DNA of 64,000 nt, from IMG/VR virus record IMGVR_UViG_3300035498_001143. One strand, 5' to 3'. The first letter of the stretch is position 1. The number at the start of each line of letters is the position of its first letter. The DNA is from a virus. Lineage: Duplodnaviria > Heunggongvirae > Uroviricota > Caudoviricetes. Below the pieces are notes generated by a model that ran no database searches, was not told the DNA's origin, and saw only the letters and a list, made by a program, of their open reading frames with translations. Positions 8,150-45,439 of this stretch are shown piece after piece. The position numbers and the translations under genes are program-made.

Positions 8150-9944
8150 AGTTGAACAAGTTTTTTACGTGCTGAAAAATCTTAAAGTCAATCAAACTAC
8201 AACATAATTAGAAATAATAAGTGTGAATGTTACGAAAGTAGAAAAAATTGATTGAATGGAATATGGTGAAATAAAAGCTAATATATAAACATTTATATAT
8301 TAGTCCTAAGTTCTTTTAATAATAGGTAATCAGCAATTAAATATCTAAATAAAATCAATTATTTTATATGATATGGATTCAACGACTATTCTTGAAAAAG
8401 ACAATGGAAATTTGTCAATAGAAGTAGGACCTAAGTAGGTAGGTGAAATCCCTTTAAATCGAAATGGAAAGATAGTATTTTTACTATGATGATATAGTCT
8501 GTTCTTATATGAGAGTATAAGATTTATAATAAAACATTATAAAAACTAAATATATATTTAACTTTTTCACCTTTTTTCTATATAAGAAATATAGGAGGTG
8601 AAAAATAATGATATATATGGGATTTAAAACCAAAATATATCCCACAAAAGAACAAATTGAATATTTTAATAAATGTTTTGGAATAGATAGATTTGTTTTT
8701 AATTGGTATCTTTACAATGATAAAAAGTATTATGCTCAAGGAAATCGACAATCTTATTATGATTTAAGAGAAAAATTAATTCAATTAAAGCATACTCCAA
8801 AATTTAATTGGTTAATGACAGCAAATGATAGAATTTTGAATTGTTCGATGAAAAATGCTAAAATGGGACTTGACAAGTTCTTTAAAAAGCTTAATAGATA
8901 TCCAAATTATAAAACAAAGAAATCGAAAAATAAAAGTTTCTCTTGTGAAAGATGTTTAATAGATTCAAATTCTACTAAATTGAAAAGATTTAAGCATTTG
9001 TTTAATGGATTTCATTTTTATATTGCAGGAGAACAAGAAGAAGGAAAACGTAGTGCTAATGGATATTTTATAAAAACAGCGGAAGATATTACTTTTTTAA
9101 AAAATAAAACTATTAAAAAAATTACAATATCTTACGATGGAATAGATTATTATGTAAGTTTTTCTTATGAAAATAGCATTATTGACTATAATGGTCATAT
9201 TGTTGATGTTGTAGGTATAGATTTAGGGCTGAAAAAATATTCAGTTCAATCTGATAACCGAATAACAGTATTTCCCAAACAAAGGGTTTTTAAGTTAGAG
9301 AAAAGAATTAAAAGATTAAGAAGTATATTAAATAAAAAGGAAAAGGGAAGTAATAACTATAATAAAGTGAAAACCAAACTTAGAAAAAGTTATAGAAAGA
9401 TTACGAATATAGTTTTGGACTTTTTACATAAATATACTACTTATATATGTAAAACCTATAAAACAATTAAAATAGAAGATTTGACGATTAAAAAAATGCT
9501 AAAAAATCACAATCTTGCAAAAGCAATTCATCGTAGTTGTTGGAGAAAATTTAGAAATATGCTTCAATATAAATCGTTGTTATATAATAATAATTTGATT
9601 ATAGTTGATAGCTATTTTCCATCAAGTAAAACGTGTTATTATTGTAGAAATAAAAAGCAAGATTTAAAATTATCGGATAGAATTTACCATTGTAATGTAT
9701 GTGGTTATGAAAACGATAGAGATTTAAACGCAGCATATAATTTAAGAGAGTGGATATAATAAATAACTTATACTAAGAAAAGTTATTATTACCTTGGTTA
9801 AAGGAATTAAGAATTTGTTTTAATTATAAAGAGTAATTATTAAATTAATTATTACTTATATATTAGTTAAATGAATTTAGTTAATTTTTTATTTTGTTTT
9901 TATATGAAAATTATTAAATAACGAATAATAATTAACAAGACAGG
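8150..9944 (+). mobile_element. IStron: group I ribozyme module (5') fused to an IS605/IS1341-family TnpB element (3'); boundaries +/- 3 nt
   Basis: Group I core elements Q (AATCAGCAA, 8328-8336), R (TTCAACGACTAT) and S (GATATAGTCTG) lie in the 450-nt ORF-less 5' part. The tnpB ORF follows, and subterminal RE-like hairpins (agtaattatt...aattattact) sit near the 3' end, which ends in G. The host reading frame resumes in phase at 9945. Confidence 0.65.
8608..9759 (+). CDS. tnpB: TnpB (IS605 OrfB / IS1341-type RuvC-like RNA-guided nuclease)
   Basis: 383 aa. N-terminal MxxGFKxKxYPTKEQ typical of OrfB. C-terminal C4 zinc finger CYYC...CNVCG and a terminal RuvC-III-like DRDLNAAYNL. Confidence 0.85.
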   Translation: MIYMGFKTKIYPTKEQIEYFNKCFGIDRFVFNWYLYNDKKYYAQGNRQSYYDLREKLIQLKHTPKFNWLMTANDRILNCSMKNAKMGLDKFFKKLNRYPNYKTKKSKNKSFSCERCLIDSNSTKLKRFKHLFNGFHFYIAGEQEEGKRSANGYFIKTAEDITFLKNKTIKKITISYDGIDYYVSFSYENSIIDYNGHIVDVVGIDLGLKKYSVQSDNRITVFPKQRVFKLEKRIKRLRSILNKKEKGSNNYNKVKTKLRKSYRKITNIVLDFLHKYTTYICKTYKTIKIEDLTIKKMLKNHNLAKAIHRSCWRKFRNMLQYKSLLYNNNLIIVDSYFPSSKTCYYCRNKKQDLKLSDRIYHCNVCGYENDRDLNAAYNLREWI

Positions 9945-19440: not shown

Positions 19441-20397
19441 TTGATTTTAGAAAATCAAACAGTTGTTATTCAATGGACGGGTCGTAATAGAAAAAAATAT
19501 GAAGAATTAGGCTATGTTTTTACTAAATTTGGAAACCCGTTAGAAATTAAAGTAGAACATTTACATAAAGGTTCTCACGAAGAAGTTTGGTATGAATGTG
19601 ACAATTGTCATAAAAAAGATAAAAGAGAATATAGAAAACTTTTTAAACAAGATATACATTATTGTAAAAAATGTTGTACTATTAGACGAGAAGAAACTTG
19701 TATGAAATTATACGGAGTAAAAAACACATTTCAGAGTGAAGAAAAAAAAGAAAAAATAAAACAAACTTGTATAAAAAAATATGGAGTAGACAGTCCTTTA
19801 AAAAACAAAGAAATACACGACAAAGTAGAAGCAACTTGTATGAAAAAATATGGCGTAAGAAATACTTTTCAAGTAAAAGAGTTTCAAGAAAAAAGTAGAC
19901 AAACAATACTTGAACGATATGGAGAAGATTATTATAAAGAAAAAGCACTTACAATGATAAGAACTTTAAATAATAAAAATAGCTCAACAAGAACATCTAA
20001 TAATCAAGCAAATATTTGTGAATGGACGAATGGTACATTAAACTATAAAATAAGTAGGTATTCTTTGGATATTAGAATAAATGATAAATTATATATTGAA
20101 TACGATGGTTCAGGACATACATTACCTGTCATTTTAAAACAAGTTTCTAAAAAAGTTTTTAAGAAAAAAGAATTATATAGAAATAAATATATGGAAAATT
20201 TAGGATATAAACTTATAAGGGTTATTAATCGTCAAGATATTGATTTAGATAAGGATGAATTTTTAAAGTTATATAATTTCTGCACCGATTATCTTAAAAA
20301 TACAGATTATAAGTGGATAAAGATATATTATGATAAACGACTTGTTATAAGTAATATTTTTAAAAAAACTTTTGATGAGGTGATAAATAATGAGTAA
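19441..20397 (+). CDS. free-standing homing-endonuclease-like protein: zinc ribbon, three ~30-aa KKYGV-N-FQ repeats, C-terminal Vsr/DUF559-like PD-(D/E)XK nuclease domain
   Basis: N-terminal CDNCH...CKKCC. Three repeats of the pattern TC[IM]KKYGV[DRK][NS][PT][FL][QK]. C-terminal LYIEYDGSGH...YMENLGYKLIRV resembles the DUF559/Vsr endonuclease core. The TTG start overlaps the gyrB start. Confidence 0.45.
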   Translation: MILENQTVVIQWTGRNRKKYEELGYVFTKFGNPLEIKVEHLHKGSHEEVWYECDNCHKKDKREYRKLFKQDIHYCKKCCTIRREETCMKLYGVKNTFQSEEKKEKIKQTCIKKYGVDSPLKNKEIHDKVEATCMKKYGVRNTFQVKEFQEKSRQTILERYGEDYYKEKALTMIRTLNNKNSSTRTSNNQANICEWTNGTLNYKISRYSLDIRINDKLYIEYDGSGHTLPVILKQVSKKVFKKKELYRNKYMENLGYKLIRVINRQDIDLDKDEFLKLYNFCTDYLKNTDYKWIKIYYDKRLVISNIFKKTFDEVINNE

Positions 20398-25439: not shown

Positions 25440-25599
25440 ATTTACTTTCCAATATATTAGTATTAATACGAACTATGAGAAATTTTATGTTGAGGGTACA
25501 GCGACATTTACTTTCCAATATATTAGTATTAATACCCTTTAATGATATATTGATTTGATTATCATTTGTATTTACTTTCCAATATATTAGTATTAATAC
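25440..25599 (-). CRISPR. mini CRISPR-like array A: 3 identical 30-nt repeats, spacers of 36 and 34 nt; transcribed leftward from the leader at 25600-26034
   Basis: Repeat ATTTACTTTCCAATATATTAGTATTAATAC at 25440-25469, 25506-25535 and 25570-25599. The minus-strand form GTATTAATACTAATATATTGGAAAGTAAAT ends in ...GTAAAT like clostridial type I-B repeats. The spacers are unique. Confidence 0.55.
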
Positions 25600-26034
25600 A
25601 CGTTCAGTATACAGCAGTATTTTTTATCGATATTTCAAATACCAATATTGTCGAACCTATTGAAAAGTTGATTTCAAACATTATTCTTTATTCATCATTT
25701 ACTTTATTCTCACAAAAACATAAGTAAACAAAGTGTTTTCAAACTTTCTGTCTATCTCTTAGTAATTTTACATTACTATACATCGACAGAATTGAAAAAC
25801 TAAAAAAATAAAAAGTATTCATACCATATATTGAATTTGGTGAGTGGTGGGCTACTACTCGTCATTTTTGGTGTAGTCTTAAAATTCTACAGCGGTGTTG
25901 AACTGTATGTGATATGAGTTACCCTCACCCTACGGACGGCAAATCGCCCGAAGTCACCAATTAAGGTGCTTATAAAAAAATGATTTTAAAAACTTACAAT
26001 ATTATAATATCACAACTACTTTTATTTGTCAAGT
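25600..26034 (-). promoter_or_regulatory. conserved ~430-bp CRISPR leader with distal consensus promoter (TTGACA 26032-26027, TATTAT 26009-26004, minus strand) and a proximal TTGAAA/TATACT-like promoter next to the first repeat
   Basis: About 90 percent identical to 42549-42990, which follows array B. Contains a 9-bp inverted repeat (aattctgtc/gacagaatt) and a GC-rich segment. Confidence 0.5.
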
Positions 26035-26100
26035 GTTTTTTAGTAATTTTATGGTTTAATTTGTTTATTATTTAAATAAAAAATATAAGGAGTAATTGAA

Positions 26101-26880
26101 ATGAAAAGATTGGTTAGAAAGTCTGCTAATGTTAATATACACGAAGCTATTGGTAATGCAATAAAGAAAATTGGTGATATTGATAGTGCAAAAACTATTG
26201 TTAATAATTTTATCGAAGATATCTTAACCGCCTATGATGAAGAATTAATTAACGATGATTATGCTTTATATTTATTAGGTGAATTTGAGAAGAATCCTAA
26301 TGTTGATATTTTTTCTATTATTGATAGTGAGGAAGAAGAATTAGTTGCTGCTTCTGTAAAAACAGCGGATGATGAAAAAGATAAAACTGAATTAGAGAAA
26401 TTTAGAGACCGTTTAGATAAGAAAGACAAAAAGGAAAAAGAAGATTATGACAATTTGCCTTTCAAGGGTAAGGTTAAACATCATTTTGATAAGGCTAAAG
26501 CATTATATAAAGAGTTCTTTGCTGAAAAATTAGATGATATGGTTGTAATAAAAGTTCCCAGCATTACTCATAATCGTGATGAAAATGGTAAGTTAATTCC
26601 TCTTACGGATGCAGAAAGACAGAAGTATATAAATTTAACAATAGAACTGTTAAATGCTGCTTTCTTTGGTAGTTCAAGTAGAGAAGAATCAGGTACTTGG
26701 CTTGATGACAAGACAAAGGAGAATGTAGTAGAAGTATCAGAAACTATTTATTCTTATTGTTCAAAGAAAAACTTAAAAGCTCACGAACACGAAATTGTTG
26801 AGTTATGTAAGGAAATGAAAGAGAATTTAAGTCAGGATAGTATTTGTTTAACAATGCACGGTAGAACACAATTTATTTAA
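26101..26880 (+). CDS. hypothetical protein
   Basis: ORF with RBS aaggag. Confidence 0.4.
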   Translation: MKRLVRKSANVNIHEAIGNAIKKIGDIDSAKTIVNNFIEDILTAYDEELINDDYALYLLGEFEKNPNVDIFSIIDSEEEELVAASVKTADDEKDKTELEKFRDRLDKKDKKEKEDYDNLPFKGKVKHHFDKAKALYKEFFAEKLDDMVVIKVPSITHNRDENGKLIPLTDAERQKYINLTIELLNAAFFGSSSREESGTWLDDKTKENVVEVSETIYSYCSKKNLKAHEHEIVELCKEMKENLSQDSICLTMHGRTQFI

Positions 26881-32117: not shown

Positions 32118-33215
32118 ATGATTAATTTAATAAATGGTGATTGTCTTGAAAAAATGAAAGATATACAAGATAAGTCAATAGATTTAATTCTGTGCGATTT
32201 GCCTTATGGTACTCAAAAAAGTAATGGTTGTAAATGGGATATAATTATTCCTTTTGACAAACTATGGGAGCAATATAATAGAATCATAAAAGATGATGGT
32301 GCTATTGTTTTATTCGGAAAAGAACCTTTTAGTTCTTTATTAAGAGCGAGTAATTTAAATATGTATAAATATGATTGGATATGGAGTAAAGATACCAAGA
32401 GTAATTTTATGCAGTGTAATTATCAACCATTAAATAATTTGGAATGTATATCTGTGTTTTCAAAGGCTTACGCAAGAGAAATAAAAGATAAAGTAAAAAT
32501 GAAATACAATCCTCAATTTTCAGAGGGAGATAGTTATAAACTCCCAAAAGAAAGTAGTACGACAGAAATATTTAGTTCTAATCATAAAAACGGTAAATAC
32601 ATACATAAAGATAGAGATACATCAAAAAGATACCCATATAATACATTATTCTTTAATTCTGTAAAAGGAAAAGAAAAAATACATCCTACACAAAAACCAA
32701 TTGATTTATTAGAGTATTTAATAAAAACATATACAGATGAAAATGATTTAGTATTAGATAACTGTATGGGAAGTGGAAGTACAGGTATTGCTTGTATTAA
32801 TACTAATAGAAATTTTATAGGAATAGAAAAAGATATTGATTTTTATATAAAGGCGAGTAATAGAATAGAAGACCATAAAAATAGCATTTTATTAACTCAA
32901 GCAGTAAATGTAACTATTGATTGTATTAACGAAGATTATGAAGAATATGATGAAAATTACAATGAAGAAAATATTCAAGATTTTGAAATAAATTGTTTTG
33001 AATTGCCTAAACGTGATATTGATGATATTGCAGGAAATGAAATACAATTAGGAAATAATTATTTTTTTCGAGAACCTGAACAATTAGATAAAGTAGAATT
33101 TATTTCGTTTAAAAAACCTGATGATGAATATTTAGAACCACTTAATTCTGAAAGATTTGAAAATATTTTTGTAAAAGAAAGGTTTTATGAAGAAAAACCT
33201 TTAGAAAGGAAATAA
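32118..33215 (+). CDS. N4/N6 DNA methyltransferase, beta class, with acidic C-terminal extension
   Basis: N-terminal DLILCDLPYGT (catalytic) and C-terminal HPTQKP...DNCMGSGSTGIAC (SAM binding), the circularly permuted beta order. Confidence 0.75.
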   Translation: MINLINGDCLEKMKDIQDKSIDLILCDLPYGTQKSNGCKWDIIIPFDKLWEQYNRIIKDDGAIVLFGKEPFSSLLRASNLNMYKYDWIWSKDTKSNFMQCNYQPLNNLECISVFSKAYAREIKDKVKMKYNPQFSEGDSYKLPKESSTTEIFSSNHKNGKYIHKDRDTSKRYPYNTLFFNSVKGKEKIHPTQKPIDLLEYLIKTYTDENDLVLDNCMGSGSTGIACINTNRNFIGIEKDIDFYIKASNRIEDHKNSILLTQAVNVTIDCINEDYEEYDENYNEENIQDFEINCFELPKRDIDDIAGNEIQLGNNYFFREPEQLDKVEFISFKKPDDEYLEPLNSERFENIFVKERFYEEKPLERK

Positions 33216-33233
33216 TTAGAAAGGAAACAAAGA

Positions 33234-33917
33234 ATGAAATTATATAATAAAGATTGTTTAGAAGTTTTAAATAGATTAGAAGATAATTCAATTGACTTAT
33301 TGATTACTGACCCACCATATCCTGTAACATCAAGAGGCTCTGCAGGTAATAGCGGTGGTATGATGCAGAAAGATGTAAATAAAAAAGGTAAGGTTTTTCA
33401 ATTTAATGATATTAAATGTGAAGATTATGCACCTGAATTTTTTAGAATATTAAAAGACGGTAGCCATTGTTATGTAATGACTAATCACGTTAATTTAATT
33501 AATATGCTTAATACTTTTACTAATTGTGGTTTTCATTTTATTAAATGCTTAATTTGGAATAAAGGCAATAAGATTATGGGTCAGTATTATATGTCACAAT
33601 TTGAATACATACTCTTTTTTAGAAAAGGCAAAGGCGTAAAAATAAATAATTGTGGTACATCTGATATTTTATCTATTCCTAATAAAAAGAAAAAAGATGA
33701 GAATGGAAAGAACTTGCACGATACAGAAAAACCAGTTGAGCTTATGGAAATATTAGTTGGTAATTCAAGTAAAGAAAATGATACAGTTATTGACCCATTT
33801 ATGGGGATTGGTGCAACAGGAGTTGCTTGCAAAAATTTAAATAGAGATTTTATAGGCGTTGAATTAGATGAACATTATTTTAATATTGCCAAAGATAGGA
33901 TAAATAAAGGGGAGTAA
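33234..33917 (+). CDS. N4/N6 DNA methyltransferase, beta class
   Basis: DLLITDPPY then HDTEKP...DPFMGIGATGVAC. Confidence 0.75.
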   Translation: MKLYNKDCLEVLNRLEDNSIDLLITDPPYPVTSRGSAGNSGGMMQKDVNKKGKVFQFNDIKCEDYAPEFFRILKDGSHCYVMTNHVNLINMLNTFTNCGFHFIKCLIWNKGNKIMGQYYMSQFEYILFFRKGKGVKINNCGTSDILSIPNKKKKDENGKNLHDTEKPVELMEILVGNSSKENDTVIDPFMGIGATGVACKNLNRDFIGVELDEHYFNIAKDRINKGE

Positions 33918-33918
33918 T

Positions 33919-35129
33919 ATGAAAAAAATTAAATTAACTGCAAATATTCTTTTTAGTGGTATTGGCTGTCAAGAATATGGATGGAGAAAGAGTAATTTAT
34001 TTGATATAGAAGTATTAAATACTTCTGATATATACAAAGAAGCTGTATTATCTTATGCTGCTATACATTGTGATATGACTAATGAAATGGTAGATAGTTA
34101 TGATTATCCAACAAAAGAAGAAATGATTGAACATTTAACTAAAATAAATTTAGGATATGATGCAGATAAAAATAAACCATTTAATTGGAATAAGGTAAAA
34201 GATAATGATTTAAAGAAATATTACCTTGCTTGTAAATTAACAAATAATTTAGGTGATATTTCAAAAATTGAAGATTTACCTTATGCTGATTTTTGGACTA
34301 TTTCTTTTCCTTGTCAATCAATTTCAATATGTGGAAAATTAAAAGGTTTTACAGAGGGTTCTAATACAAGAAGTAGTTTATTATGGGAAAATATAAGATT
34401 ATTAAAAATTGCTAAAGAAAAGAATAAAACACCTAAGTATCTTATGTTCGAAAACGTAAAAAATTTACTTAGTAAAAGGTTTGAAAATGATTTTAAAGAT
34501 TTAGTTGATATATTAGACGATTTAGGTTTTAATATTTATTATAACGTATTAAATTCTAAATGTTGTGGAGTACCACAAAATAGAGAAAGAGTTTTTGTTA
34601 TTTGTATTAGAAAAGATACTGATACTAATTTATTTACTTTTCCAAAACCATTTGATAATGGAATGAGATTAAAAGATATTTTGGAAGATGAAGTTGATGA
34701 AAAATATTACATAAGTGAAGCAGCACAGAAAAAATTAAAATTTATAACTACTAATAGTAAAAACGATACTTTCCAATTAAAACAAATTGCTCAAATGTAT
34801 GGTACAGATAAAGAACCTAATCCTCAGGCAGGTAGAGTTTATAGTGAAGATTATATTTGCCCTACTTTAGATACTTGTAGCGGGGGAATAGAATGCCAAA
34901 AGTGTATAGAGAACCAAGAGTAAGAAAACTTACACCAAGAGAATGCTTTGCATTACAAGGTTTTACTTTTGAAGATTGTAATAAAGCAATAGATATAGGT
35001 GTTGCTGATTCTCATTTATACAAACAAGCAGGTAATGGTATTACGACTAATTGTTGTGCATTGTTAGCAGAACATTTATATAAAGCTCAATATAATAACT
35101 TTTACATTTGTAGTGATGAAAAATATTAA
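33919..35129 (+). CDS. C5-cytosine DNA methyltransferase interrupted by a frameshift at a G5 run (34882-34886)
   Basis: Motif I FSGIGC, IV FPCQ, VI ENV in the frame ending at 34923. Motif IX RKLTPRECFALQGF and X GNG are in the frame opening at 34881. One extra G would fuse them. Confidence 0.6.
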
Positions 35130-35141
35130 GAAGGTGAAAAT

Positions 35142-35858
35142 TTGGAATATAATGAATGTAAAATATTATGTACATTAGAAAAAGAAAAAACTCCTTTAAA
35201 AACAGTTGTACCTGTTGATGAATTTACTAAAAAATTAGAGTTAAATTTTGATTATGATTTTAATGGAGAAAATATTGTTTATCCTTATAAATATCCTGAG
35301 ATATTAGATAATATAGATTATAAAATATTATGTATTGTTGGTGCAAGTGGTAGTGGCAAGTCAACATTAATTAAAAAGTTCCCTTTCTATAAAGAGAATA
35401 ATAAACAATTTAATAATGAAAAAGCCATTGTTTCTAATTTTAATAATTTTGAAGAGGCAAGTGAGAAATTAATTGCAGTAGGTTTATCTTCTTTGCCTAT
35501 TTGGAGTAGACCAAGAAATGTTTTATCTATTGGTGAAGCTTTTAGAGCTGATTTAGCTTTAAATTTAGATAGTTATTCTGTATTTGATGAATTTACAAGT
35601 ACAGTAGATAGAAATGTAGCTAAATCTACTTGTTGTTCTATTTCTAAGTATATAAATAATAAAGAACTTACTCATATTGTTTTTTCAAGTTGTCATAAAG
35701 ATTTTATTTCTTATTTAAATCCTGATATTGTTATTGATTTAGATGATGAAAAAATATATGACTGTCGAGGTATTGACTTAAAAAAAGAATTACTCTCCAA
35801 GTATACGAATCAACAGACAAAGATATTTGGAGAGTATTTAGGAAACATCACTATTTAA
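35142..35858 (+). CDS. compact ABC-type ATPase domain protein
   Basis: Walker A GASGSGKST, signature-like LSIGEAFRADLA, Walker B VFDEFTSTVD, H-loop HIVFSSCH. Confidence 0.55.
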   Translation: MEYNECKILCTLEKEKTPLKTVVPVDEFTKKLELNFDYDFNGENIVYPYKYPEILDNIDYKILCIVGASGSGKSTLIKKFPFYKENNKQFNNEKAIVSNFNNFEEASEKLIAVGLSSLPIWSRPRNVLSIGEAFRADLALNLDSYSVFDEFTSTVDRNVAKSTCCSISKYINNKELTHIVFSSCHKDFISYLNPDIVIDLDDEKIYDCRGIDLKKELLSKYTNQQTKIFGEYLGNITI

Positions 35859-36487
35859 GTGCTGATTTTAATAAAGCAGCAAGATTATTCTTGGTATATT
35901 GGGATAATGTTTTAGTTGCATTATGTTCTATGTTACCTAATCCAAGTGGTACAGTAAAACACGGTTTTAGATGCCATAGATTGGTTGTCTTACCTGATTA
36001 TCAAGGTTTAGGTTTTGGTACTAAAATAACAGAATATATTGCTGATATTTATTTAAAAGAGGGTAAAAGGTTTTATTTTAGAACAACTCATAAGAAATTA
36101 CTTAATCATATGGATAGTAGCGATTTATGGGTTGGTACAAGTCATAATAATAAACCACAAACTACTGATATTCAAGGTAGAGAATTAAAAACTAAGAAAA
36201 GAATTTGTGGTAGTTATGAATATGTAGGTAATGATTATATTTCTAAACCACACAAAGAAATTGTTATTGACGAAATAAATGATTTAAATAAATTAAAAAA
36301 TTATTTAATAAGTTTACAAAAACAATATTATGTAATTATTATTCACGGTAAGTCTGAATGTGATGATGAAATCGATATACTTTGTCAAAAATTAGCTATA
36401 AGAACAAAAACTTTATATATAAAGAAAAAAGATACATACACTAAGAAAAAAATTCCTAAGAATGTAGAAATTTATAAGGAGAATTGA
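35789..36487 (+). CDS. GNAT-like acetyltransferase domain in the -1 frame relative to the ABC ATPase; probably its C-terminal extension via frameshift
   Basis: GNAT motif A RLVVLPDYQGLGFGTKI. The -1 frame is open from just after the A7 run at 35780-35786, with no independent RBS. Confidence 0.4.
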   Translation: MTLQVYESTDKDIWRVFRKHHYLSADFNKAARLFLVYWDNVLVALCSMLPNPSGTVKHGFRCHRLVVLPDYQGLGFGTKITEYIADIYLKEGKRFYFRTTHKKLLNHMDSSDLWVGTSHNNKPQTTDIQGRELKTKKRICGSYEYVGNDYISKPHKEIVIDEINDLNKLKNYLISLQKQYYVIIIHGKSECDDEIDILCQKLAIRTKTLYIKKKDTYTKKKIPKNVEIYKEN

Positions 36488-37317
36488 TTATGTATGAACC
36501 TGTTATAAAATGGTCGGGTAGTAAAAGAAGTCAAGCAGAAGAAATACTAAAGTATTTTCCTAAAGAAATAGATACATATTATGAACCATTCTGCGGTGGA
36601 GCTTCTATGTTGAGAAGATTATTAGATGCAGATATAAAGGTAAATAAATATGTTTGTAGTGATTTAAATAAAGATTTAATAGATTTATTTAATTTAATAA
36701 AAACTCAACCATATCAAGTATCTGAACATTATAGAGAGTTATGGAATAAATTAAATATTGACGATGATAAGAAAAGAAAAAAGAATTTCTTTAATGAAAT
36801 AAGAGATAAATTAAATAAAGAACACAATCCATTAGATTTTATGTTTATTATGAGAACTACAACAAATGGTATGCCAAGATATAATGCAAAGGGTGAATTT
36901 AATAATTCTTTTCATATAACAAGAGATGGTATAAATCCTGATACATTAAAAAATATTATTTATGAGTGGAGTAATTTATTAAATGATAATAATGTTGAAT
37001 TTATAAATTGTTCTTATGAAAAAGTAAAACCTAATAAAAATGATTTTCTTTATTTAGACCCACCATATTATAATACTAAAGGTATGTATTATGGAAGAAT
37101 TGATTATGATGAATTTTTTGATTATTTAAGAAATATACCTTGTAATTATATATTAAGTTTTGATGGTATAAGCGGAGATAAAAACAATACAGCAAATATA
37201 CCTAACGATATATATACTAAACACGAATATATAAAAAGCGGTAATTCTTCATTTAAAAGAATTATTGGTAATTCAAAAGATAGTATTGTTTATGAGAGTA
37301 TTTACATAAAGGAATGA
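36484..37317 (+). CDS. Dam-like (D12-class) N6-adenine DNA methyltransferase
   Basis: WSGSKRS...YYEPFCGGAS and DPPY. Confidence 0.75.
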   Translation: MIMYEPVIKWSGSKRSQAEEILKYFPKEIDTYYEPFCGGASMLRRLLDADIKVNKYVCSDLNKDLIDLFNLIKTQPYQVSEHYRELWNKLNIDDDKKRKKNFFNEIRDKLNKEHNPLDFMFIMRTTTNGMPRYNAKGEFNNSFHITRDGINPDTLKNIIYEWSNLLNDNNVEFINCSYEKVKPNKNDFLYLDPPYYNTKGMYYGRIDYDEFFDYLRNIPCNYILSFDGISGDKNNTANIPNDIYTKHEYIKSGNSSFKRIIGNSKDSIVYESIYIKE

Positions 37318-37511
37318 TGATTATTTTGAATAGAAATTTTGAAACTATAGATTATAGTATCTTTTCGTTAGAACACAATTCTATGTTTGAAAATGATAAA
37401 ACATTTAATTTTTATGGAATTGGTATTTCTGATGAAAATAATAATTATGGAAATATAAAAATAAATGATATTATTTTAAATAATGCGGAAGAAGATAATT
37501 ACTTATTTTAA
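37314..37511 (+). CDS. hypothetical protein
   Basis: ORF. Confidence 0.3.
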   Translation: MMIILNRNFETIDYSIFSLEHNSMFENDKTFNFYGIGISDENNNYGNIKINDIILNNAEEDNYLF

Positions 37512-37536
37512 GCACCTTTTAATAGGTGCTTTTTTA
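37511..37536 (+). terminator. rho-independent terminator
   Basis: aagcaccttttaataggtgctt plus T6. Confidence 0.6.
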
Positions 37537-37565
37537 TTGACGAATAATAAAAATTGTGGTATAAT
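37537..37565 (+). promoter_or_regulatory. sigma70 promoter TTGACG-17-TGnTATAAT
   Basis: Near consensus. Confidence 0.55.
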
Positions 37566-37598
37566 ATAAACAAAAAATATTTAAAAGGAGGAGAAAAG

Positions 37599-38156
37599 TT
37601 GAAAGATTTTACATTTGATTATTGGAGAGATAGTCTTGATAGTAATAAATTGTTTCTTGATGAGGGATATTGCATTTCAAATAATTGGGAAGATTATACT
37701 TATATTCCTTATTCTTTGAGAGAATTATCAGGTGAAGTTTTTAATGAAAAATTATATAATGCAAAAAAGAATAATTCTAAGAAAACTTCTAAGAATAAAA
37801 TAATAGATAACGACTTAAAGAAAAATCTTATTACAAAATTAGTATGTACTAATGAAAAAAGAGTAAGAAATATTATCGGTGGATTAACAATCGGACAAGA
37901 TGTTAATTTTGAATATACTAAAAAAGGAGTAAGTTGTTTTGTTGATAAATTAGAGTACCATAAATCAAAAAGAAATATTATTGTAGATAAAAAACATTTC
38001 ATAGGTCATATTCCTTTTTCAAAAACTTCTTTAATAAAAAATAACAAAAGTAATATTAGAAGTATAGAGATTTTTGATATAAAAGAAAAGTATAAAAATC
38101 AAAAAGCAATAATAATTAAAATAGAATTTTTAGAAGGAGTAAAAATAGATGGCTAA
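37599..38156 (+). CDS. hypothetical basic protein
   Basis: TTG after RBS aaaggagg. Confidence 0.4.
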   Translation: MKDFTFDYWRDSLDSNKLFLDEGYCISNNWEDYTYIPYSLRELSGEVFNEKLYNAKKNNSKKTSKNKIIDNDLKKNLITKLVCTNEKRVRNIIGGLTIGQDVNFEYTKKGVSCFVDKLEYHKSKRNIIVDKKHFIGHIPFSKTSLIKNNKSNIRSIEIFDIKEKYKNQKAIIIKIEFLEGVKIDG

Positions 38157-38504
38157 GAAGAAAGAAAAAAAAGTCGATATTGATAAGATGTTAGCCAATG
38201 AGGTAGTTTATGACGTACCTATAGCAAAAACAATAAGAAACTCAACATTGAATTATGCTATGTCAGTTATTACAGATAGAGCCTTACCTGATGTAAGAGA
38301 TGGTTGTAAACCAATACAAAGAAAAGTCTTGTATGCAACTTATGTAAAAAAAATATTTCCTAATTCAAAGTTTACAAAAAATGCTGAAATCGTAGGTGAA
38401 GTAATAGGTAAATACAGTCCTCACGGTGATACGAGTACTTATGGAGCTTTAGTAAATTTGGCTCAACCTTGGAACACAAAATATCCATTAATTGATTTTC
38501 ACGG
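38149..38504 (+). CDS. gyrA: DNA gyrase/topo II subunit A, exon 1 (through the HPHGD-region up to LIDFHG)
   Basis: ...GCKPIQRKVLYA...KYSPHGDTSTYGALVNLAQPW..., the GyrA N-terminal motifs. The frame stops 3 codons after the junction. Confidence 0.8.
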
Positions 38505-38890
38505 TAGACAATGATTTTTAATAAAAGATATAATTATATCTTGAAAAATTTGACTTAGTTAAAAATTATGCCGTTCTAAGTGAAACTGTCAGGTAGCTTA
38601 GAACTATGAGTGCGAAATGAAGCTGGGAGGGTTTAGTCATCCTAATCAGAAATTTTGAAGGCTATATTTAAAAGTATAGTCAAAGGCAACGCATAGAGAA
38701 TGAACCTTAAATGCGAGTTTAAGAATATAATTTCTCCAAGAGGTCGCACTAACGGACAGTACAATAACAGAGCTTATTCGTGTTAAAAAGTTATGCTATA
38801 CTGAATATGAATTGACATATTGATGAAAATGAGAGAAATCTCCAGAGATATAGATAAAAAACTATATGATAAAAACAATTAGAACTCAGG
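38505..38890 (+). ncRNA. intervening sequence in gyrA, probably a self-splicing intron (boundary +/- 1 nt)
   Basis: 386 nt with stops in all frames. Contains group-I-like pieces (AATCAGAAA, TATAGTC, GGCTATA) but in a non-canonical order. It ends in G, and excision restores ...LIDFHG|NFDGDQYAAYRYTEGRL in frame. Confidence 0.45.
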
Positions 38891-40925
38891 AAATTTTGAT
38901 GGAGACCAATATGCTGCTTATAGATATACAGAAGGCAGATTACATAAAAATGCAATGGAATTATTAAGTGGTCTTGAAGAAAAATGTGTTCCATTTCACC
39001 CCAATTTTAGTGAAACAACAGAAGAACCAGAAGTATTACCTGGTTTATTGCCTAATTTGCTTGTAAACGGCTCATACGGCATTGCAGTTGGCTATACAAC
39101 CAATTTCCCCTCACACAACCTTTCAGAGGTTATAGACGGTATTATAAAGGTTATACAGAACCCTGATGCTACATTAAAAGATATAATGAAATATATAAAA
39201 GCACCTGATTTTCCTTTAGGTAGTCTTTTGGTAGATGATGGTAATATTGAAAAATTATATACAGAAGGTAAAGCAAGTTTAACATTCTTATCTAAGTATA
39301 CTATTGAGGAAAATTCTGAAAATAAGAATCCTCAAATAATTTTTCACGAAATACCACCTACTGTTAATAAACCTAAACTTGTTGAAAAAATATACGAAGT
39401 CTGTATAGATAAAAAACAAGTACCAAGGGTTGTTGATATAAGGGATGAATCAAATGGTGAAGCAGGTATTAGAATTGTAGTTGAATTACATAAAACAGCA
39501 ATAGTAGATATTGTTTTATCTGAATTGTTTAAAAGAACAGATTTAAAGAAATCTAATTCATATATTTTAAGATGTATTGATGATAAAATTCCAAAGGTTT
39601 TATCTTTAAAAGAAATAATTGAAAAGTACATTGAATTTCATAAGGAAGTATATATTAGTAAATATACTAATATGTTAGCCAAAGTAAATAAAAAACTTCA
39701 TATTCAAGAGGGCTATAAAAAGATTTTAACTAATATTGATAAAGCAATTGATATTATTAGAAAATCTGATGATGATAAGGTTGCTAAAGCTAAATTAAAA
39801 GACGAATTTGATTTAACAGATGAGCAGGCAGAAGTAATTCTTGATATGAAATTAAGAAATATTACTAAGTTAGCTTCTAAAGATATTGATACGACTATTC
39901 AAGAGTATAAAGATAAAATTGCTACTTATACAGATATTATTTCAAATGATGATTCTTTAAATAATGTTTTAATAAACGATTTGAAAGATTTGAAAAAACG
40001 TCTTGGCGATAGTAGAAAAACTGAAATAGTCCATGATGTTGCTACTCAAATAGTTCAGAGTGTTGAAAAAGATGTAATGTTAGTCTTAACTAATAAGAAT
40101 AATATCAAACATTATGAAGTAGATACTTATGAAGAAATGATAGCGAAAGGCTATAAGGAGAAATCTGAAATATTCTTACAGTCTGTTAAAATAAATACTA
40201 ATGATAAAGTATTATTGATTTTAAATAATTGTAAATATATTTGTTTAGAATTTAATGATTTATTAGGTAATATAAGTTCATTAATAGATAAGCAGGCAAT
40301 TAAAACTATTATTCCTTTAACAGAAAACAATATGAAGAAAGTTATCTTTGTTATGACGAAAAAAGGGTTAATTAAAAAATGCTTTGTTGAAAAGATTAAA
40401 TATAAGAAGAAATTAGCTCCTCTTATGGAAATTGATGAAGAAGATAATGTAATAAAGGTTGATTTAATAGATAATAATGAAAATAATGTTATTACTGTTG
40501 CTTCACAAGATGGTTTAATACATAGATTCTTTGTTAATTCATTTAAAGAAACATCAGCAGGCGGTAAAGGATTAAGTAGTATGTCATTACAAGATAGTAA
40601 TATAGTTGATTTTATTATTTCTGATAAAAGTAATGATGAGAATAATCAATTAATTATTTATGCTATAAATGAAAATAATTATATGATTAAGAAAATACCT
40701 TTAAAGGAATTTTTAGTCAAGGGTAGAATAGCAAAAGGTGTTAAATCTATAAACTTTACTACAAAAAGTCCTGGCGAGATATATAAAATATTTATTACTG
40801 ATAAAGATTTTTCAATTATAAACAACAAGGGCATATTACAAGAAATAAAATTAGATAGTATAAAAGAAAGCACTAAAGCAACCAAGGGTGAAAATATAGA
40901 TTACGATGTTTTATATATAAAATAA
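38891..40925 (+). CDS. gyrA: gyrA exon 2 (active-site Tyr region, tower, C-terminal domain)
   Basis: NFDGD...RYTE..L...PNLLVNGSYGIAVGYTTNFPSHNL matches the GyrA/ParC breakage-reunion domain. The frame is open from 38892. Confidence 0.8.
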
Positions 40926-40931
40926 TTATTA

Positions 40932-40967
40932 AAGGCTCACAAATTAAGATTTTGTGAGTCTTTTTTT
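40932..40967 (+). terminator. rho-independent terminator
   Basis: aaaggctcacaaa...tttgtgagtcttt plus T7. Confidence 0.6.
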
Positions 40968-41004
40968 ATATATAAAATATAAAAAGAAAGGACTGTATAT
41001 AAAA

Positions 41005-41505
41005 ATGATTATAAATAGAGTATGGTCAATGCCTAACAGTAACACTTTTTCAATAAAGCCTATCAAAGAAATTATAAATAAATACGCTTTTGGTAAAATT
41101 ATAGACCCTTTTGCTAATGATAGTAAAATTGCAACTATTACTAATGATTTAGATATATCTCACGATACTGATTATCATTTAGATGCTACTGATTTTTTAA
41201 AGATGTTTGAAGACAATTCTATTGATACTGTTTTATATGACCCACCTTATTCTCCACGTCAAGTTTCTGAATGTTATAAGAAGTTAGGACAAACAGTAAA
41301 TATGCAAACAACACAAGCTTCTTACTGGTCACTTCAAAAAGAGCAAATAGGAAGAATTGTAAAACAAAATGGTATAGTGATAACTTGTTGTTGGAACTCA
41401 GGCGGTATTGGTAAAAAATATGGTTTTGAAATAGAAGAAATATTGTTAGTACCACATGGCGGTTGGCATAATGATACTATTGTAACAGTAGAAAGAAAAA
41501 AGTAG
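41005..41505 (+). CDS. small DPPY-motif DNA (adenine) methyltransferase
   Basis: LYDPPYSPRQ catalytic motif in a 166-aa protein; the ORF-track start is moved to the ATG with RBS after the terminator. Confidence 0.55.
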   Translation: MIINRVWSMPNSNTFSIKPIKEIINKYAFGKIIDPFANDSKIATITNDLDISHDTDYHLDATDFLKMFEDNSIDTVLYDPPYSPRQVSECYKKLGQTVNMQTTQASYWSLQKEQIGRIVKQNGIVITCCWNSGGIGKKYGFEIEEILLVPHGGWHNDTIVTVERKK

Positions 41506-41514
41506 GTGTAATAT

Positions 41515-42099
41515 GTGGCTAAGATAGAAAATGATAAGTATTATACACCTGATGATTTAGCAAAATACTGTGTAGAAAAAGCAAATGAAATAATAGGTGT
41601 TGATAATATAATTAGTTATATAGAACCATCAGCAGGAGCAGGGGCGTTTATTAAATATTTTAATAAAGATTATTTAGCAATAGATATTCTTCCTGAACAC
41701 GAAAGAGTCATTGAACAAGATTTTTTGACTTTAAATCTTTCTTACAAGAAAGGTAGAATGATAATAGGCAATCCACCGTATGGTAGAAATATGTCTTTAG
41801 CTCAAAAATTCTATAAGAAATCAATAGAGCTTGCAGATTATATAGCTTTTATATTGCCTATTTCACAATTAAATAATACTAATTCTTTATATGAATTTGA
41901 TTTAATATATAGTGAGGACTTGGGAATAAGAACATATTCAAATATTGATTTACATTGTTGCTTTAATATTTACAAAAGACCTGAAAACGGGTTAAATAAA
42001 AAGGAAAGTATTAAATTAAAAGATATAACTATTTATAGACAAGATAAAAAAGGTTATGATAATTTAGATTTTGATATAAGAATGTGCTACTGGGGGTAA
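41515..42099 (+). CDS. N6-adenine DNA methyltransferase, gamma-like (NPPY)
   Basis: YYTP...EPSAGAGAF (SAM) then IIGNPPYGR (catalytic). Confidence 0.7.
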   Translation: MAKIENDKYYTPDDLAKYCVEKANEIIGVDNIISYIEPSAGAGAFIKYFNKDYLAIDILPEHERVIEQDFLTLNLSYKKGRMIIGNPPYGRNMSLAQKFYKKSIELADYIAFILPISQLNNTNSLYEFDLIYSEDLGIRTYSNIDLHCCFNIYKRPENGLNKKESIKLKDITIYRQDKKGYDNLDFDIRMCYWG

Positions 42100-42118
42100 T
42101 GGTTGTGCAGGTAAAATA

Positions 42119-42307
42119 TTGAAAGATAACGAACACTATTCTGCTGAATATAAAATAAAAATAAACAATGATGAACTAAAAGAAGAAATAATAAATGTTT
42201 TAAGTAGTTTCGATTGGAAAAGTTATTTAAATTGTATTGCAGCAAGAAAGATACAGCAGTTTCATATTATTGATGTTTTAAAAAATAATATACCCAAAAT
42301 AAAGTAA
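42119..42307 (+). CDS. hypothetical protein
   Basis: ORF. Confidence 0.3.
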   Translation: MKDNEHYSAEYKIKINNDELKEEIINVLSSFDWKSYLNCIAARKIQQFHIIDVLKNNIPKIK

Positions 42308-42330
42308 GAGGCTTAAATGCCTCTTTTTAT
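42306..42330 (+). terminator. rho-independent terminator
   Basis: aagaggcttaaatgcctctt plus T run. Confidence 0.55.
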
Positions 42331-42400
42331 ATGTAAGTTTTTATCTATAAATATTAATATTTTTTGTATACTAATATTTAAAAAACAATCTGTCAAATTG

Positions 42401-42548
42401 ATTTACTTTCCAATATTTCAATATTAATACCTTAAAAACAACTTAAAAAAACAGATTACCTCGAATTTACTTTTCAATATAGTAGCATTAATACTTTGGT
42501 GATTACACAAACAGTACATTTACTTTCCAACATATTAGTATCAATACC
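42401..42548 (-). CRISPR. mini CRISPR-like array B: 3 diverged copies of the same 30-31-nt repeat, spacers of 34 and 23 nt
   Basis: Repeats at 42401-42431, 42466-42495 and 42519-42548 match array A at 24-27 of 30 positions. It is followed by the same conserved leader (42549-42990). Confidence 0.4.
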
Positions 42549-42978
42549 CGTTTAGTATGCAGTAGTACATTTTATTAGTATTTCAAATACTAAATCTGTC
42601 GAACTCATTGAAAAAGTTAATTTCGAATATTATTTTTTATCCATTATTTACTTTATTCTCACAAGAACATAAGTAAATAAAGTGTTTTCAAAATTCTGTC
42701 TATCTCTTAGCAATTTTACACTACTATACATCGACAGAATTTAAAAACTAAAAAAATAAAAAGTATTTATACTATATATTGAATTTGGTGAGTGGTTGGC
42801 TTCTTCCGTCAAAGCGGTGCAAGTCTTAAAATTCTACAGCAGTGTTGAACTGTATGTGATATGAATTACCCTCACCCTACGGACGGCAAATCGCCCGAAG
42901 TCACCAATTAAAGTGCTTATAAAAATAGTTCTTAAAAACTTACAATATTATAATAACATATTATTTTCTGTTTGTCAA
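42549..42978 (-). promoter_or_regulatory. second copy of the conserved CRISPR leader with distal minus-strand promoter (TTGACA 42978-42973, TATTAT 42955-42950)
   Basis: About 90 percent identity to 25600-26034, including the inverted repeat and the GC-rich segment. Confidence 0.5.
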
Positions 42979-43024
42979 GTATTTTTTATTAGAAAAATAA
43001 ATTTTAAGAGATGAGTGTGATTTA

Positions 43025-43879
43025 ATGAATAATTTAATTCCACCTTGTTCTTATCAAGGCGGCAAACAAAGACTTGCAAAACAAATTGTAGATATTATAT
43101 ATAAAGAAAATAATATTGATGAAAATACAAAATTTTTTGATATTTGTTGTGGTAGCGGAGCTGTTAGTTTAGAGTTAATAAATAATAACTTTAATTCTAA
43201 TAACATTACAATGATTGATATAAATATTTTTGGACTTTTCTATGAATATGTTTCTAAAAATAAATTTGATTTAAATATTTTTAAAGAAGAAATAGATAAA
43301 TTACCTGATAAAGAATACATACAACTTTATTTAAAACAATTAAGTGATTTACCTATTGATGAAGAAAAATTAGTATATCAATATTTATTGTTGCAGGCAG
43401 GTAGTTTTGGAAGTAAACAAATTTATATAAAAGATAATAAATGGAAGAATAACACGTTTAGAAATTATTGGCAACCTACTAAGAGTAGTAATAGAAAAAG
43501 TCCTGTCAATCCCATGATGCCGATGCCTGATACGTTATTTGAAAGAGTAGAAAATATTGTAAATAAATTAAGTGGTAAGATTGTTGCATACAATGATGAT
43601 ATTTTTAATATATTAAATATTTTTTCCAATTTAGATAATAATGTTATTATTTACATTGACCCACCGTACTCAAACACGACAAAATATAAAGATAGTTTTG
43701 ATGTTTATGAATTGATTGATAAGTTAAAAAACATAAATGATTTTACTATTTATATATCAGAAGGCGTTGAATTGAACAATGCTAAAAACACATATTTACT
43801 TTCAAGAGGTAGAACTAAAGGTAATATTAGTGGTAATGTAACTAAAAAGCCTGTTGAAGAATGGTTAAATAAATTCTGA
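43025..43879 (+). CDS. Dam-like (D12-class) N6-adenine DNA methyltransferase
   Basis: YQGGKQRLAK...CCGSGAV and IYIDPPY. Confidence 0.7.
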   Translation: MNNLIPPCSYQGGKQRLAKQIVDIIYKENNIDENTKFFDICCGSGAVSLELINNNFNSNNITMIDINIFGLFYEYVSKNKFDLNIFKEEIDKLPDKEYIQLYLKQLSDLPIDEEKLVYQYLLLQAGSFGSKQIYIKDNKWKNNTFRNYWQPTKSSNRKSPVNPMMPMPDTLFERVENIVNKLSGKIVAYNDDIFNILNIFSNLDNNVIIYIDPPYSNTTKYKDSFDVYELIDKLKNINDFTIYISEGVELNNAKNTYLLSRGRTKGNISGNVTKKPVEEWLNKF

Positions 43880-43906
43880 AAGTAAATTCTGAAAGGAATA
43901 TAAATA

Positions 43907-44239
43907 ATGAAATACAAACCAACAATTAAAGAATACTTAACTTGGATAAAAGAAGATATAAAAAGATTATATTATTTAATACGTTATTTTACAAAGGCAT
44001 TATTTAATGTAGATAAAAATATTTTATTAAGTAAAGATTTTAAAGTGGATAGTTATATTATTACTTTTCATTCTGACGATTATAGCGGAGCTTGTTATGA
44101 TGAAAGAAGATTTGATAATTTTAAAGACGCTTATGAACTTTACGAATTAAGTAAAAATCAAAAATGTAGAGAAGATTTTGTAAGATTGCATATTTCGATT
44201 GAATATATTGGAAATATAGAAATAGCAAGATATAAATAA
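43907..44239 (+). CDS. hypothetical protein
   Basis: ORF. Confidence 0.35.
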   Translation: MKYKPTIKEYLTWIKEDIKRLYYLIRYFTKALFNVDKNILLSKDFKVDSYIITFHSDDYSGACYDERRFDNFKDAYELYELSKNQKCREDFVRLHISIEYIGNIEIARYK

Positions 44240-44251
44240 GAGGTTTAATAT

Positions 44252-44641
44252 ATGAGAGAAATTATTTTTTTAATAAGTATTTTATTTTTTCACGTAATAG
44301 AAGATTTTTATTTTCAAGGGTGGTTAGCTTCTGCCAAACAAAAAACTTGGTGGATAAAAAACAATCCTAATGAAATGTATAAATATGATTATGTTGTAAT
44401 ATTACTTGTACATTCGTTTTCATGGACTGTTATGATACATATACCAATTTTAATTTATATGTATTTATTTAATATTTCAGTAGATGTTTCTGATTTTTCG
44501 TTTATGTTTATATTAACGATAATTATACATTGTCTTACTGATAATGCAAAAGCTAATTTATATAAAATAAATCTTATTCAAGACCAATTAATTCATTTAT
44601 TGCAAATTATTGTATTATGGGTTACTTACATAAATTTATAA
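44252..44641 (+). CDS. small membrane protein
   Basis: Three hydrophobic helices. Confidence 0.35.
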   Translation: MREIIFLISILFFHVIEDFYFQGWLASAKQKTWWIKNNPNEMYKYDYVVILLVHSFSWTVMIHIPILIYMYLFNISVDVSDFSFMFILTIIIHCLTDNAKANLYKINLIQDQLIHLLQIIVLWVTYINL

Positions 44642-44659
44642 ATTAAAGAAAGGAAATGA

Positions 44660-45097
44660 ATGATGAAAAAAATAAAATTGTGGATTTATAATTTTATTGT
44701 TAATGCTATCGCTGCTGATGACGATTTAAATTTAACAGGTAAGCAAAGAAGTCAATTATTTAGTCTAACTAATAAATTTAAAGTTAGAAATTGTAAAAAG
44801 AATTTAATTTATATAAGTCATCCTTATCAAGATAAAAAAGAAAATATTGAGGATATAGAAAAAATCATCAATAACTTGGTGAAGAAATATGATGAATATA
44901 CATTTGTTTCTCCTGTTCATTGTTTTGGATTTATGTATACAACTGTTTCTTATGATAGAGGGTTAGATTTTTGTCTTGATTTATTAGATTGCTGTGAACA
45001 AATGTGGGTGTTTGGTACTTATACAAATAGTATAGGTTGTACTAAAGAGATTGAATATTGTATTACAAATAATATTAAATATAAAATTTTTAGTTGA
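44660..45097 (+). CDS. hypothetical protein (nucleoside 2-deoxyribosyltransferase-like fold is a weak guess)
   Basis: YISHPY...VFGTY...G pattern only. Confidence 0.3.
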   Translation: MMKKIKLWIYNFIVNAIAADDDLNLTGKQRSQLFSLTNKFKVRNCKKNLIYISHPYQDKKENIEDIEKIINNLVKKYDEYTFVSPVHCFGFMYTTVSYDRGLDFCLDLLDCCEQMWVFGTYTNSIGCTKEIEYCITNNIKYKIFS

Positions 45098-45099
45098 TG

Positions 45100-45140
45100 A
45101 AAAAAAAGAGGGTAGAAAAACTACTCTCTTTTTTTAATTA
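45100..45140 (+). terminator. rho-independent terminator
   Basis: aagagggtagaaaaactactctctt plus T7. Confidence 0.55.
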
Positions 45141-45439
45141 TTATAACATTAAAGTTATTTGCTTAATAATATGTATACTATCTATCTTATTTTGCGTTTA
45201 TTTGCCTTTTTAATGGTTTGTAACTTTTTAGGTGAACGAATTATCGTCAGTCATCTTAAAATTCAAAATAAGGGCATTTCTGAGCGTTTTAGAGCCATAT
45301 ATTAAATCATTCAATAGTCCGTCATTCATTTTTTGTTATATAAGTCTTAATTTTTATAATTTTGAACTAATGAAATTGAGAGTGAATCTTAGAGTTAATT
45401 TTTATCCCTATATAAAAATTCATCAAATAGAGATTTACT

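Follow-up and report, generated by a model that had tools for sequence, protein, structure and literature searches.

A GC-rich block that is shared by the leaders of two small CRISPR arrays in a phage genome encodes a folded RNA domain. The arrays lie in a DNA stretch of 64,000 nt from the IMG/VR record IMGVR_UViG_3300035498_001143 (Caudoviricetes), which is referred to here as the window. The functional strand of the block is the minus strand. The domain is best filed as a new motif, absent from Rfam, at the start of a CRISPR leader transcript. We would give an even chance to the explanation that the block is a cis-acting leader RNA domain of the phage CRISPR RNA precursor (pre-crRNA), which would stabilise the transcript or keep its transcription going.

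The presence of a GC-rich structured block in both leaders, noted in a preliminary description of the window, is confirmed. The coordinates and sequence given there are correct (25839-25970 and 42787-42916), and both copies have a GC content of 47%, compared to 25.8% for the 64-kb window and 15-24% for the flanks. The two stems that had been proposed, GGUGAG with CUCACC and CGGACGGC with GCCCG, are real and correspond to helix P1 and hairpin H1 (CGGGCG/CGUCCG on the minus strand) of the fold, and the centre that had been seen to differ between the copies is the region of hairpin P3 (approximately 25854-25880). The block is also located as described, inside the leaders of both arrays. Promoter, block, leader and repeat are all on the minus strand. 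Two claims hold only in part. The block is present in both leaders, but it is not specially conserved, as the duplication, at about 88% identity, covers an entire unit with a length of about 480 bp, which reaches from the first repeat as far as the promoter (25570-26045 and 42518-42990). The inverted repeat upstream of the block, described as a perfect repeat of 9 bp, is so in copy B, but has only 7 bp in copy A (ttctgtc/gacagaa, 25746-25791). A covariance model of the block, run against the whole window, matches only the two copies, with 141 bits for B and 117 bits for A, and the next best match scores 12 bits.

On the minus strand, the block folds into a hairpin P0, a hairpin H1, and a three-way junction formed by P1, P2/P2a and P3. 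P0 is located at 25951-25971 in unit A (AAGCACC/GGUGaCUU) and at 42898-42918 in unit B (AAGCACU/GGUGaCUU), and the core structured domain at 25836-25953 and 42784-42900, respectively. In domain A, H1 (25931-25952) has its G+C helix extended by U-A pairs. P1 is formed by 25921-25929 and 25839-25848 (GGUGAGGGU/ACCaCUCACC), and P2 by 25916-25920 and 25883-25887 (AAYUC/GARUU). The latter is stacked, across an 8-nt bulge, on P2a (25902-25907 paired with 25888-25893, UACAGU/GCUGUA). P3 is a short hairpin (25873-25877 paired with 25854-25858). The strands that join the helices at the junction, UCACAUA and UUUAAGAC, are invariant across the variants. RNAalifold, run independently, produced the same structure on the sense strand, with an energy of -33.6 kcal/mol, and a different fold on the antisense strand, with -26.7 kcal/mol. 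Folding of both strands, which the preliminary description had put forward as a check, gave z-scores of -2.2 to -4.4 for the sense strand, and of -0.1 to -2.0 for the antisense strand.

The fold is supported by comparison of six distinct variants of the core, which include the two window copies and are 80-93% alike. The alignment of these variants was scored for 28 pairs, with P3 left out, and control alignments were obtained by sliding the pairing partners by 1-3 columns. Of all pair cells, 97.6% are paired, versus 37-48% in the controls. Five pairs are changed on both sides, versus none in the controls. In H1, a C-G pair is changed to U-A, in P2 an A-U pair to G-C and a U-A pair to C-G, and in P2a a C-G pair to U-A and an A-U pair to C-G. 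The P0 stem also covaries in locus L008 of a related phage, where AAGCACC/GGUGaCUU has become AAGCAUC/GAUGaCUU, and in copy B it contains a U-G pair. This stem is kept while its loop ranges from 6 to about 32 nt, with an additional hairpin of its own inserted in L008, L025 and L102. The nucleotides that make up P3 differ among the variants. Copy A has ACUAC/GUAGU, L102 has GUUAC/GUAAU, and the remaining variants have GCUUU/GAAGC or CUUG/UAAG. A hairpin is kept at this position, with uncertain register. Overall, substitutions in the six variants are concentrated in the loops and at compensating stem positions. A pseudoknot between the H1 loop and the 3' tail was considered and rejected, as a G-to-A change in the loop is by inspection uncompensated.

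The sequence differences also distinguish between the strands. Several pairs that are G-U on the minus strand would turn into A-C mismatches if the plus strand were folded instead. They are found at alignment columns 7/18 (all variants), 27/114 and 52/62, as well as in the P0 stem of copy B. Only two cells point in the opposite direction, a C-A in copy A (columns 36/70) and an A-C in L102 (columns 50/64). Because of the strand-specific G-U pairs and the compensatory changes, an RNA element is the best reading of the block. Among the roles that had been suggested for it, the RNA element is thus retained, and the docking site for integration host factor (IHF) or Cas1-Cas2 on the DNA is not.

The promoter of unit A is predicted at 26004-26032 on the minus strand, and consists of TTGACA, a 17-nt spacer, and a TG-extended TATTAT(AAT). 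It has 11 of 12 matches in the promoter scan, as does the promoter of unit B (42950-42978, minus strand), which also has the TG extension. In both copies, about 30 nt separate the promoter from the structured region downstream of it. The spacer varies in sequence among the loci, but its length of 17 nt and both hexamers are retained in 6/6 of them, which is the pattern expected of a working promoter. The position of the promoter supports the earlier suggestion that the block would be in the 5' part of a minus-strand transcript. Between the block and the first repeat, the scan found no further promoter-like site on the minus strand of either copy, and the sole other site of this kind (9/12 matches) is inside the block. 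The scan also found no terminator-like site after the block on the minus strand of either copy. This applies to the conserved U-tract at 25795-25814 (UUUUUAUUUUUUUAGUUUUU, minus strand), which is nearly invariant in five variants, and which is not called a terminator because there is no G+C hairpin upstream of it.

Further downstream, the leader of unit A contains the long AU-rich hairpin formed by the inverted repeat at 25746-25791 (minus strand). In L008, no part of the leader is less conserved than this one. Another hairpin precedes repeat 1 by 30-45 nt and is located at 25628-25643 on the minus strand (42575-42593 in copy B). Between variants, changes in one arm of this hairpin are compensated in the other (UUAGUAU/AUACUAA, UUGGUAU/AUAUCGA and UUGAUA/UAUCAA). 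A copy of the 3' end of the repeat (AAUAAAGUAAAU) is present in the leader at 25697-25735 (minus strand), about 100 nt upstream of repeat 1, and the minimum free energy (MFE) fold pairs this copy with GUUUACUUAU upstream of it. The leader thus looks as if it were partly built from degenerate pieces of the repeat, in both orientations.

Both arrays downstream of the leaders are short. Array A (25440-25599, minus strand) consists of three perfect 30-nt repeats (25440-25469, 25506-25535 and 25570-25599; GTATTAATACTAATATATTGGAAAGTAAAT on the minus strand), which are separated by two spacers of 34 and 36 nt. In array B (42401-42547, minus strand), the three repeats (42401-42430, 42465-42494 and 42518-42547) are degenerate and have 2-3 mismatches each, and the spacers are 34 and 23 nt long. 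With 3/3 repeats mutated and the 23-nt spacer (42495-42517) truncated, array B may be in decay, or may be a regulatory mini array of a CRISPR-like kind. Spacers in this repeat family are 34-37 nt long, and both the repeat/spacer geometry and the repeat sequence fit subtype I-B. The phage repeat has 24 columns identical to the I-B repeat of Clostridioides difficile (GTTTTAGATTAACTATATGGAATGTAAAT, PMC7064742) and 22 columns identical to that of Clostridium septicum (PMC8696124), and 0/2000 shuffles reach either score. It is composed of two palindromes, GTATTAATAC and AATATATT.

A search for cas families did not identify any among the 63 open reading frames (ORFs) of the window, or among the neighbours of the arrays on the contig pieces of the phage genome, the largest of which is about 0.5 Mb. 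The CRISPR loci are neighboured by genes for methyltransferases, a helicase with a LAGLIDADG insert, an amidase, a PhoH/PIN protein, and SMC-like ATPases. Spacers are identical across samples in the arrays L014, L015, L017, L019 and L021, and in L025, L026, L028 and L030, and there is therefore no sign of ongoing acquisition. Several spacers have a GC content of about 40%, well above the 26% of the phage, so that their targets are probably other elements. No targets were found among the sequences compared in this analysis. Compared to L019 and L018, the neighbourhood is changed on a 19-kb contig (L092), where an array that has the amidase/helicase genes as neighbours on other contigs is found directly next to a methyltransferase that accompanies a different array on other contigs. 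Such an arrangement is expected from recombination between the repeated 480-bp leader units.

In exact-pattern scans, the block was matched only in IMG/VR contigs of one phage clade, with lengths of 379, 224, 180, 151, 96, 77, 54 and 45 kb. The JGI version of one of the clade contigs (Ga0484759_000001) has 502,690 bp. A single genome, IMGVR_UViG_3300043080_000590, contains five loci (L008, L018, L021, L025 and L102). With four further variants in related phages, the block is conserved beyond the two copies that had been described. The order of promoter, P0, core, U-tract and leader is constant across the loci, and the block accompanies every IMG/VR array of this repeat family, in constant order and orientation. 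The arrays downstream differ in length, with 8-9 repeats in the L014 and L025 types, mini arrays of 2-3 repeats in window A, window B and L022, and decayed repeats in L008 (two) and L102 (one). Just downstream of the decayed mini array of L008 (3200-3560), there are four copies of AAATAGAAGTAAA, 100-124 nt apart and on the strand opposite to the array. This motif resembles the 3' end of the repeat (GGAAAGTAAAT).

Outside the clade, the block was not detected. It is absent from distant phage relatives, identified via the neighbouring methyltransferase (64-68% identity). BLAST searches with the unit against INPHARED phages and PLSDB plasmids returned a chance AT-rich match or nothing. Searches with 20-24-mers of the block, in two metagenome scans and in 185,579 species genomes, gave only chance matches in high-GC genomes, with the limitation that the genome scan would miss T-variant copies, because only the C variant of the H1 loop was used. 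A literature search on the environment or host of the source samples returned nothing.

According to the explanation that we favour, what the block encodes on the minus strand would be the core of an RNA domain that is structured and has a length of about 135-165 nt. The near-consensus promoter of the sigma-70 type, about 30 nt upstream, would start a single transcript near 25996, with the folded domain as its 5' part. After the domain, the transcript would comprise the U-tract, an AU-rich leader portion of about 235 nt, and an I-B-like array of the Clostridium type. Promoter, domain, leader and array together constitute a module that is repeated in a small clade with contigs of up to about 0.5 Mb. 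Most likely, the domain would act in cis, on a transcript that would be untranslated and very AU-rich. Its stable 5' fold may protect the pre-crRNA from decay that depends on the 5' end, and/or the domain may sustain elongation by RNA polymerase across the U-rich leader. In both cases, the phage would obtain abundant CRISPR RNAs (crRNAs) for Cas proteins encoded elsewhere, presumably by the host.

Several points weigh against this explanation. No terminator that would require an antiterminator was found in the minus-strand scans, and P0 starts about 25 nt from the predicted transcription start, which is not ideal for a protector of the 5' end. The covariation is good, but not yet statistically rigorous. 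It rests on few events, because the six variants are from one narrow clade and are closely similar. The main observation that a cis-acting leader does not cover is the array-less locus L102 (6600-7000, minus strand; identical in L100). In this fifth locus of the 379-kb phage, the promoter is kept together with P0, which carries a hairpin insert of 27 nt, and with the core, which scores 107 bits and has compensatory changes. All that remains of an array is one decayed repeat (GTATTTAATATATTAAAAAGCAAAAT) about 110 nt downstream. The retention in L100/L102 hints at a role that is independent of crRNAs. The transcript of L102 would then enter, in antisense orientation, a short ORF that has a strong ribosome-binding site.

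Among known objects, the leader of the C. difficile I-B arrays comes closest. These arrays have a sigma-A promoter and transcribed leaders of 170-200 nt, and many of them are located in prophages without adjacent cas genes (PMC4556805, PMC3649979). The sigma-A-type promoter, the long leader, the repeat family, and the existence of many arrays without adjacent cas genes are shared with the phage units, and the orientation of leader and repeat is also the same (PMC7064742). For comparison, the published leader of strain 630 (PMC7064742) was folded and aligned with four leaders of C. difficile phages (L103-L106). In these five leaders, a domain is closed by an invariant long-range stem of 8 bp (UUGCAGUG/CACUGCAA), the interior hairpins are variable, and five pairs are changed on both sides. 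The architecture is thus analogous, with a promoter, a stem-closed domain with multiple hairpins, a short AU-rich stretch, and the repeat. The block covariance model R1 scores at most 6 bits against the C. difficile domain, and there is no detectable sequence similarity. As R1 misses the C. difficile domain, homology is not shown. The leaders also differ in dimensions. The phage leader has about 400 nt, and its G+C-rich domain is 235 nt away from the first repeat, whereas the C. difficile domain is only about 55 nt away from the repeat. Moreover, a segment complementary to the repeat is present in the phage leader, but not in the C. difficile leader. In the literature on structured RNAs in CRISPR leaders or phage arrays, no description of such a domain was found, and this includes the domain in the C. 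difficile leader.

Other known elements are less similar. The boxA is a linear motif of 12 nt, and the put element of phage HK022, a cis-acting antiterminator RNA, comprises two stem-loops with a total length of about 70 nt. Stringer et al. reportedly found, in eLife in 2020, boxA/Nus antitermination elements in CRISPR leaders. What the phage domain has in common with these elements is that it would act in cis, as a phage-borne RNA located just after the promoter for a long untranslated transcript. In contrast to these, the phage domain has no sequence or family match, and no terminator was identified downstream of it. The CRISPR-like anti-CRISPR RNAs, termed Racr, provide another comparison. 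Phages are known to carry mini CRISPR arrays and solitary repeat units as well as such RNAs (PMC6858448; bioRxiv 10.1101/2024.10.29.618823). The phage arrays of this study resemble them in being orphan, short or degenerate, with repeats of the host type, and in one locus only a single decayed repeat is left. However, the published elements are repeat-spacer units, and an upstream structured domain was found in no description of them.

A CRISPR leader is usually regarded as AT-rich DNA with a promoter and with signals for integration. In these phages, the leader has a conserved folded RNA domain, which has been copied with every CRISPR unit of a giant phage, and has been kept even after decay of the array. 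In view of the analogous fold in C. difficile, crRNA production in Clostridia and their phages may generally involve leader RNA structure, as a layer that has been overlooked. As C. difficile is genetically tractable, the idea can be tested directly. Should the domain prove to raise crRNA output, CRISPR arrays delivered by phages could also benefit from it.

A different explanation starts from a segment complementary to the repeat (UUCAAUAUAUGGUAUGAAUAC, 25815-25835, minus strand), which is located directly 3' of P1 and followed by UUUUUAUUUUUUU. It is uncertain whether this tail belongs to the element. If it does, the phage RNA could be trans-acting, either like a trans-activating CRISPR RNA (tracrRNA) or as an antisense RNA, with the domain as a protein-binding scaffold and the 21-nt tail paired to nt 1-22 of the repeat. 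It could then promote maturation or loading of phage crRNAs without Cas6, or mask the repeats of host pre-crRNA as an RNA anti-CRISPR. The layout of scaffold, repeat-complementary tail and U-tract fits this explanation. The duplex has 20 bp, one mismatch and one bulge, and an RNAduplex energy of -16.6 kcal/mol, compared to -6.2 +/- 2.2 kcal/mol for shuffled sequences, of which 1/500 is as good. Comparable energies are kept in L014 (-15.8) and L008 (-17.2), and the MFE fold of the transcript pairs the tail with a repeat. The Cas6 site of I-B repeats can be deduced from the 8-nt 5' tag of I-B crRNAs. The complementarity stops at this expected site, so that nt 1-22 are the part of the repeat that is left 3' of the spacer after Cas6 cleavage. 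An 8-nt 5' tag has also been proposed for C. difficile (PMC4556805). A tracrRNA-like or anti-CRISPR role would also explain why domain and promoter survive at the array-less locus L100/L102.

Against this explanation, ten other sites in 128 kb of real sequence, or about one per 13 kb of the window, equal the duplex energy of -16.6 kcal/mol, which corresponds to p of about 0.03 per leader. A second such site is found in the same leader, and degenerate direct copies of the repeat are automatically repeat-complementary, because the repeat consists of two palindromes. Repeats differ at nt 6, 12, 14, 17 and 18, but the tail stays nearly the same, with energies of -11.9 to -16.9 kcal/mol for pairing with the repeats of the same locus, and it is largely replaced in L102. 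The U-tract is not preceded by a terminator hairpin according to the scan. No class 2 effector (Cas9, Cas12) or cas gene was found near the six loci or in the window, and the TnpB genes that are present, whose products are the only RuvC-type proteins there, are ordinary IS200/605 cargo with their own omega RNA. In tracrRNAs of type V, a 5' scaffold is followed by a 3' anti-repeat. The phage element shares this order of scaffold and repeat-pairing segment, and the crRNA orientation, with the repeat preceding the spacer. Unlike in type V, there is no class 2 effector that was found, the repeats are I-B-like, and the complementarity is only marginally above background and without covariation. Moreover, the phage domain occurs in one copy per array and, judging from the promoter, would be co-transcribed with the array. 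We therefore regard a trans-acting RNA as unlikely, and the more specific version, a tracrRNA-like RNA made of domain and tail for a type I system, the scaffold of which would bind a host or phage protein, and which would load phage crRNAs without Cas6, or mask and destroy host pre-crRNA, as rather improbable.

Similarly improbable is a regulatory leader of the riboswitch or attenuator type, which would sense a ligand or protein and gate transcription of the array. Such a role would be in line with a strong promoter that is directly followed by the three-way junction and its invariant joining strands, and with the conserved U-tract downstream of the junction. However, there is no Rfam match at E up to 10, there is neither a terminator/antiterminator hairpin at the U-tract nor an ORF downstream, and in six close variants invariant positions are indistinguishable from those due to recent common descent. 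Another explanation is that the block is a functionless passenger, kept only through recent duplication of the 480-bp unit within and between phages. This explanation is in agreement with the 80-93% similarity of all copies, with the conservation of the whole leader rather than of the block alone, and with the confinement to one clade. Yet it does not account for the concentration of substitutions in loops and at compensating stem positions, for the P0 stem that is kept despite the change of its loop from 6 to about 32 nt, for P3 that is rebuilt from different nucleotides, or for a GC island of 47% that is maintained in a genome with 26% GC. A mere passenger is thus very unlikely. Upstream leader motifs are used by the integrases of the I-E and I-F systems. 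The location in a CRISPR leader and the inverted repeats could suggest a DNA-level element, at which Cas1-Cas2, an IHF-like protein or a regulator would dock or bend the DNA. However, the block is 235-365 bp away from the leader-repeat junction, its stems change by compensatory substitution instead of being conserved in sequence, the asymmetry between G-U and A-C fits RNA, and one strand only, and the arrays, identical between samples, give no sign of ongoing acquisition. We consider the DNA element the least probable of all explanations.

Searches for known identities of the block did not yield candidates. Rfam gave no hit in the whole window at gathering thresholds, and only chance-level matches for 25550-26110 at E up to 10, and ARAGORN found no tRNA or transfer-messenger RNA (tmRNA) in the window. 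Between A and B, the small ORFs over the block have different frames and starts, and in L014 they are interrupted. As they are not conserved in frame, the block is neither a gene nor a type I toxin of the kind that is found next to CRISPR arrays in C. difficile. Self-regulation of the CreTA type was rejected, as the spacer seeds match neither promoters nor other sites in the window convincingly. An omega RNA of IS200/605 elements was rejected as well, since tnpB genes are present at 8608-9759 in the window and at 655-1755 in L008, each with a 3' region that is unlike the block. The window TnpB (IS605 OrfB, 8608-9759, plus strand, 383 aa) is 16 kb away from the block and has no neighbouring tnpA. 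The L008 TnpB (655-1755), with 30% identity to the window TnpB, is part of a complete IS200/605 element with TnpA and omega RNA, 1.9 kb downstream of the decayed mini array.

The gene content of the window resembles that of a very large phage, with split gyrase/topoisomerase genes, ClpP, ClpX-like proteins, and at least 11 DNA methyltransferases. A dense cluster of DNA methyltransferases is located at 32118-49715, with six ORFs of the Pfam N6_N4_Mtase family, four of the D12 class, and one C5 enzyme. This cluster suggests broad evasion of restriction systems. A 69-nt tandem repeat (19689-19877, 2.8 copies, 68% matches) is found inside an ORF with a DUF7487 domain (19441-20397). Finally, unit A is adjoined by the gene of a 259-aa protein (26101-26880, plus strand). 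Among 5.8 billion proteins, the only homologues of this protein at E <= 1e-5 were identical copies, located on three contigs.

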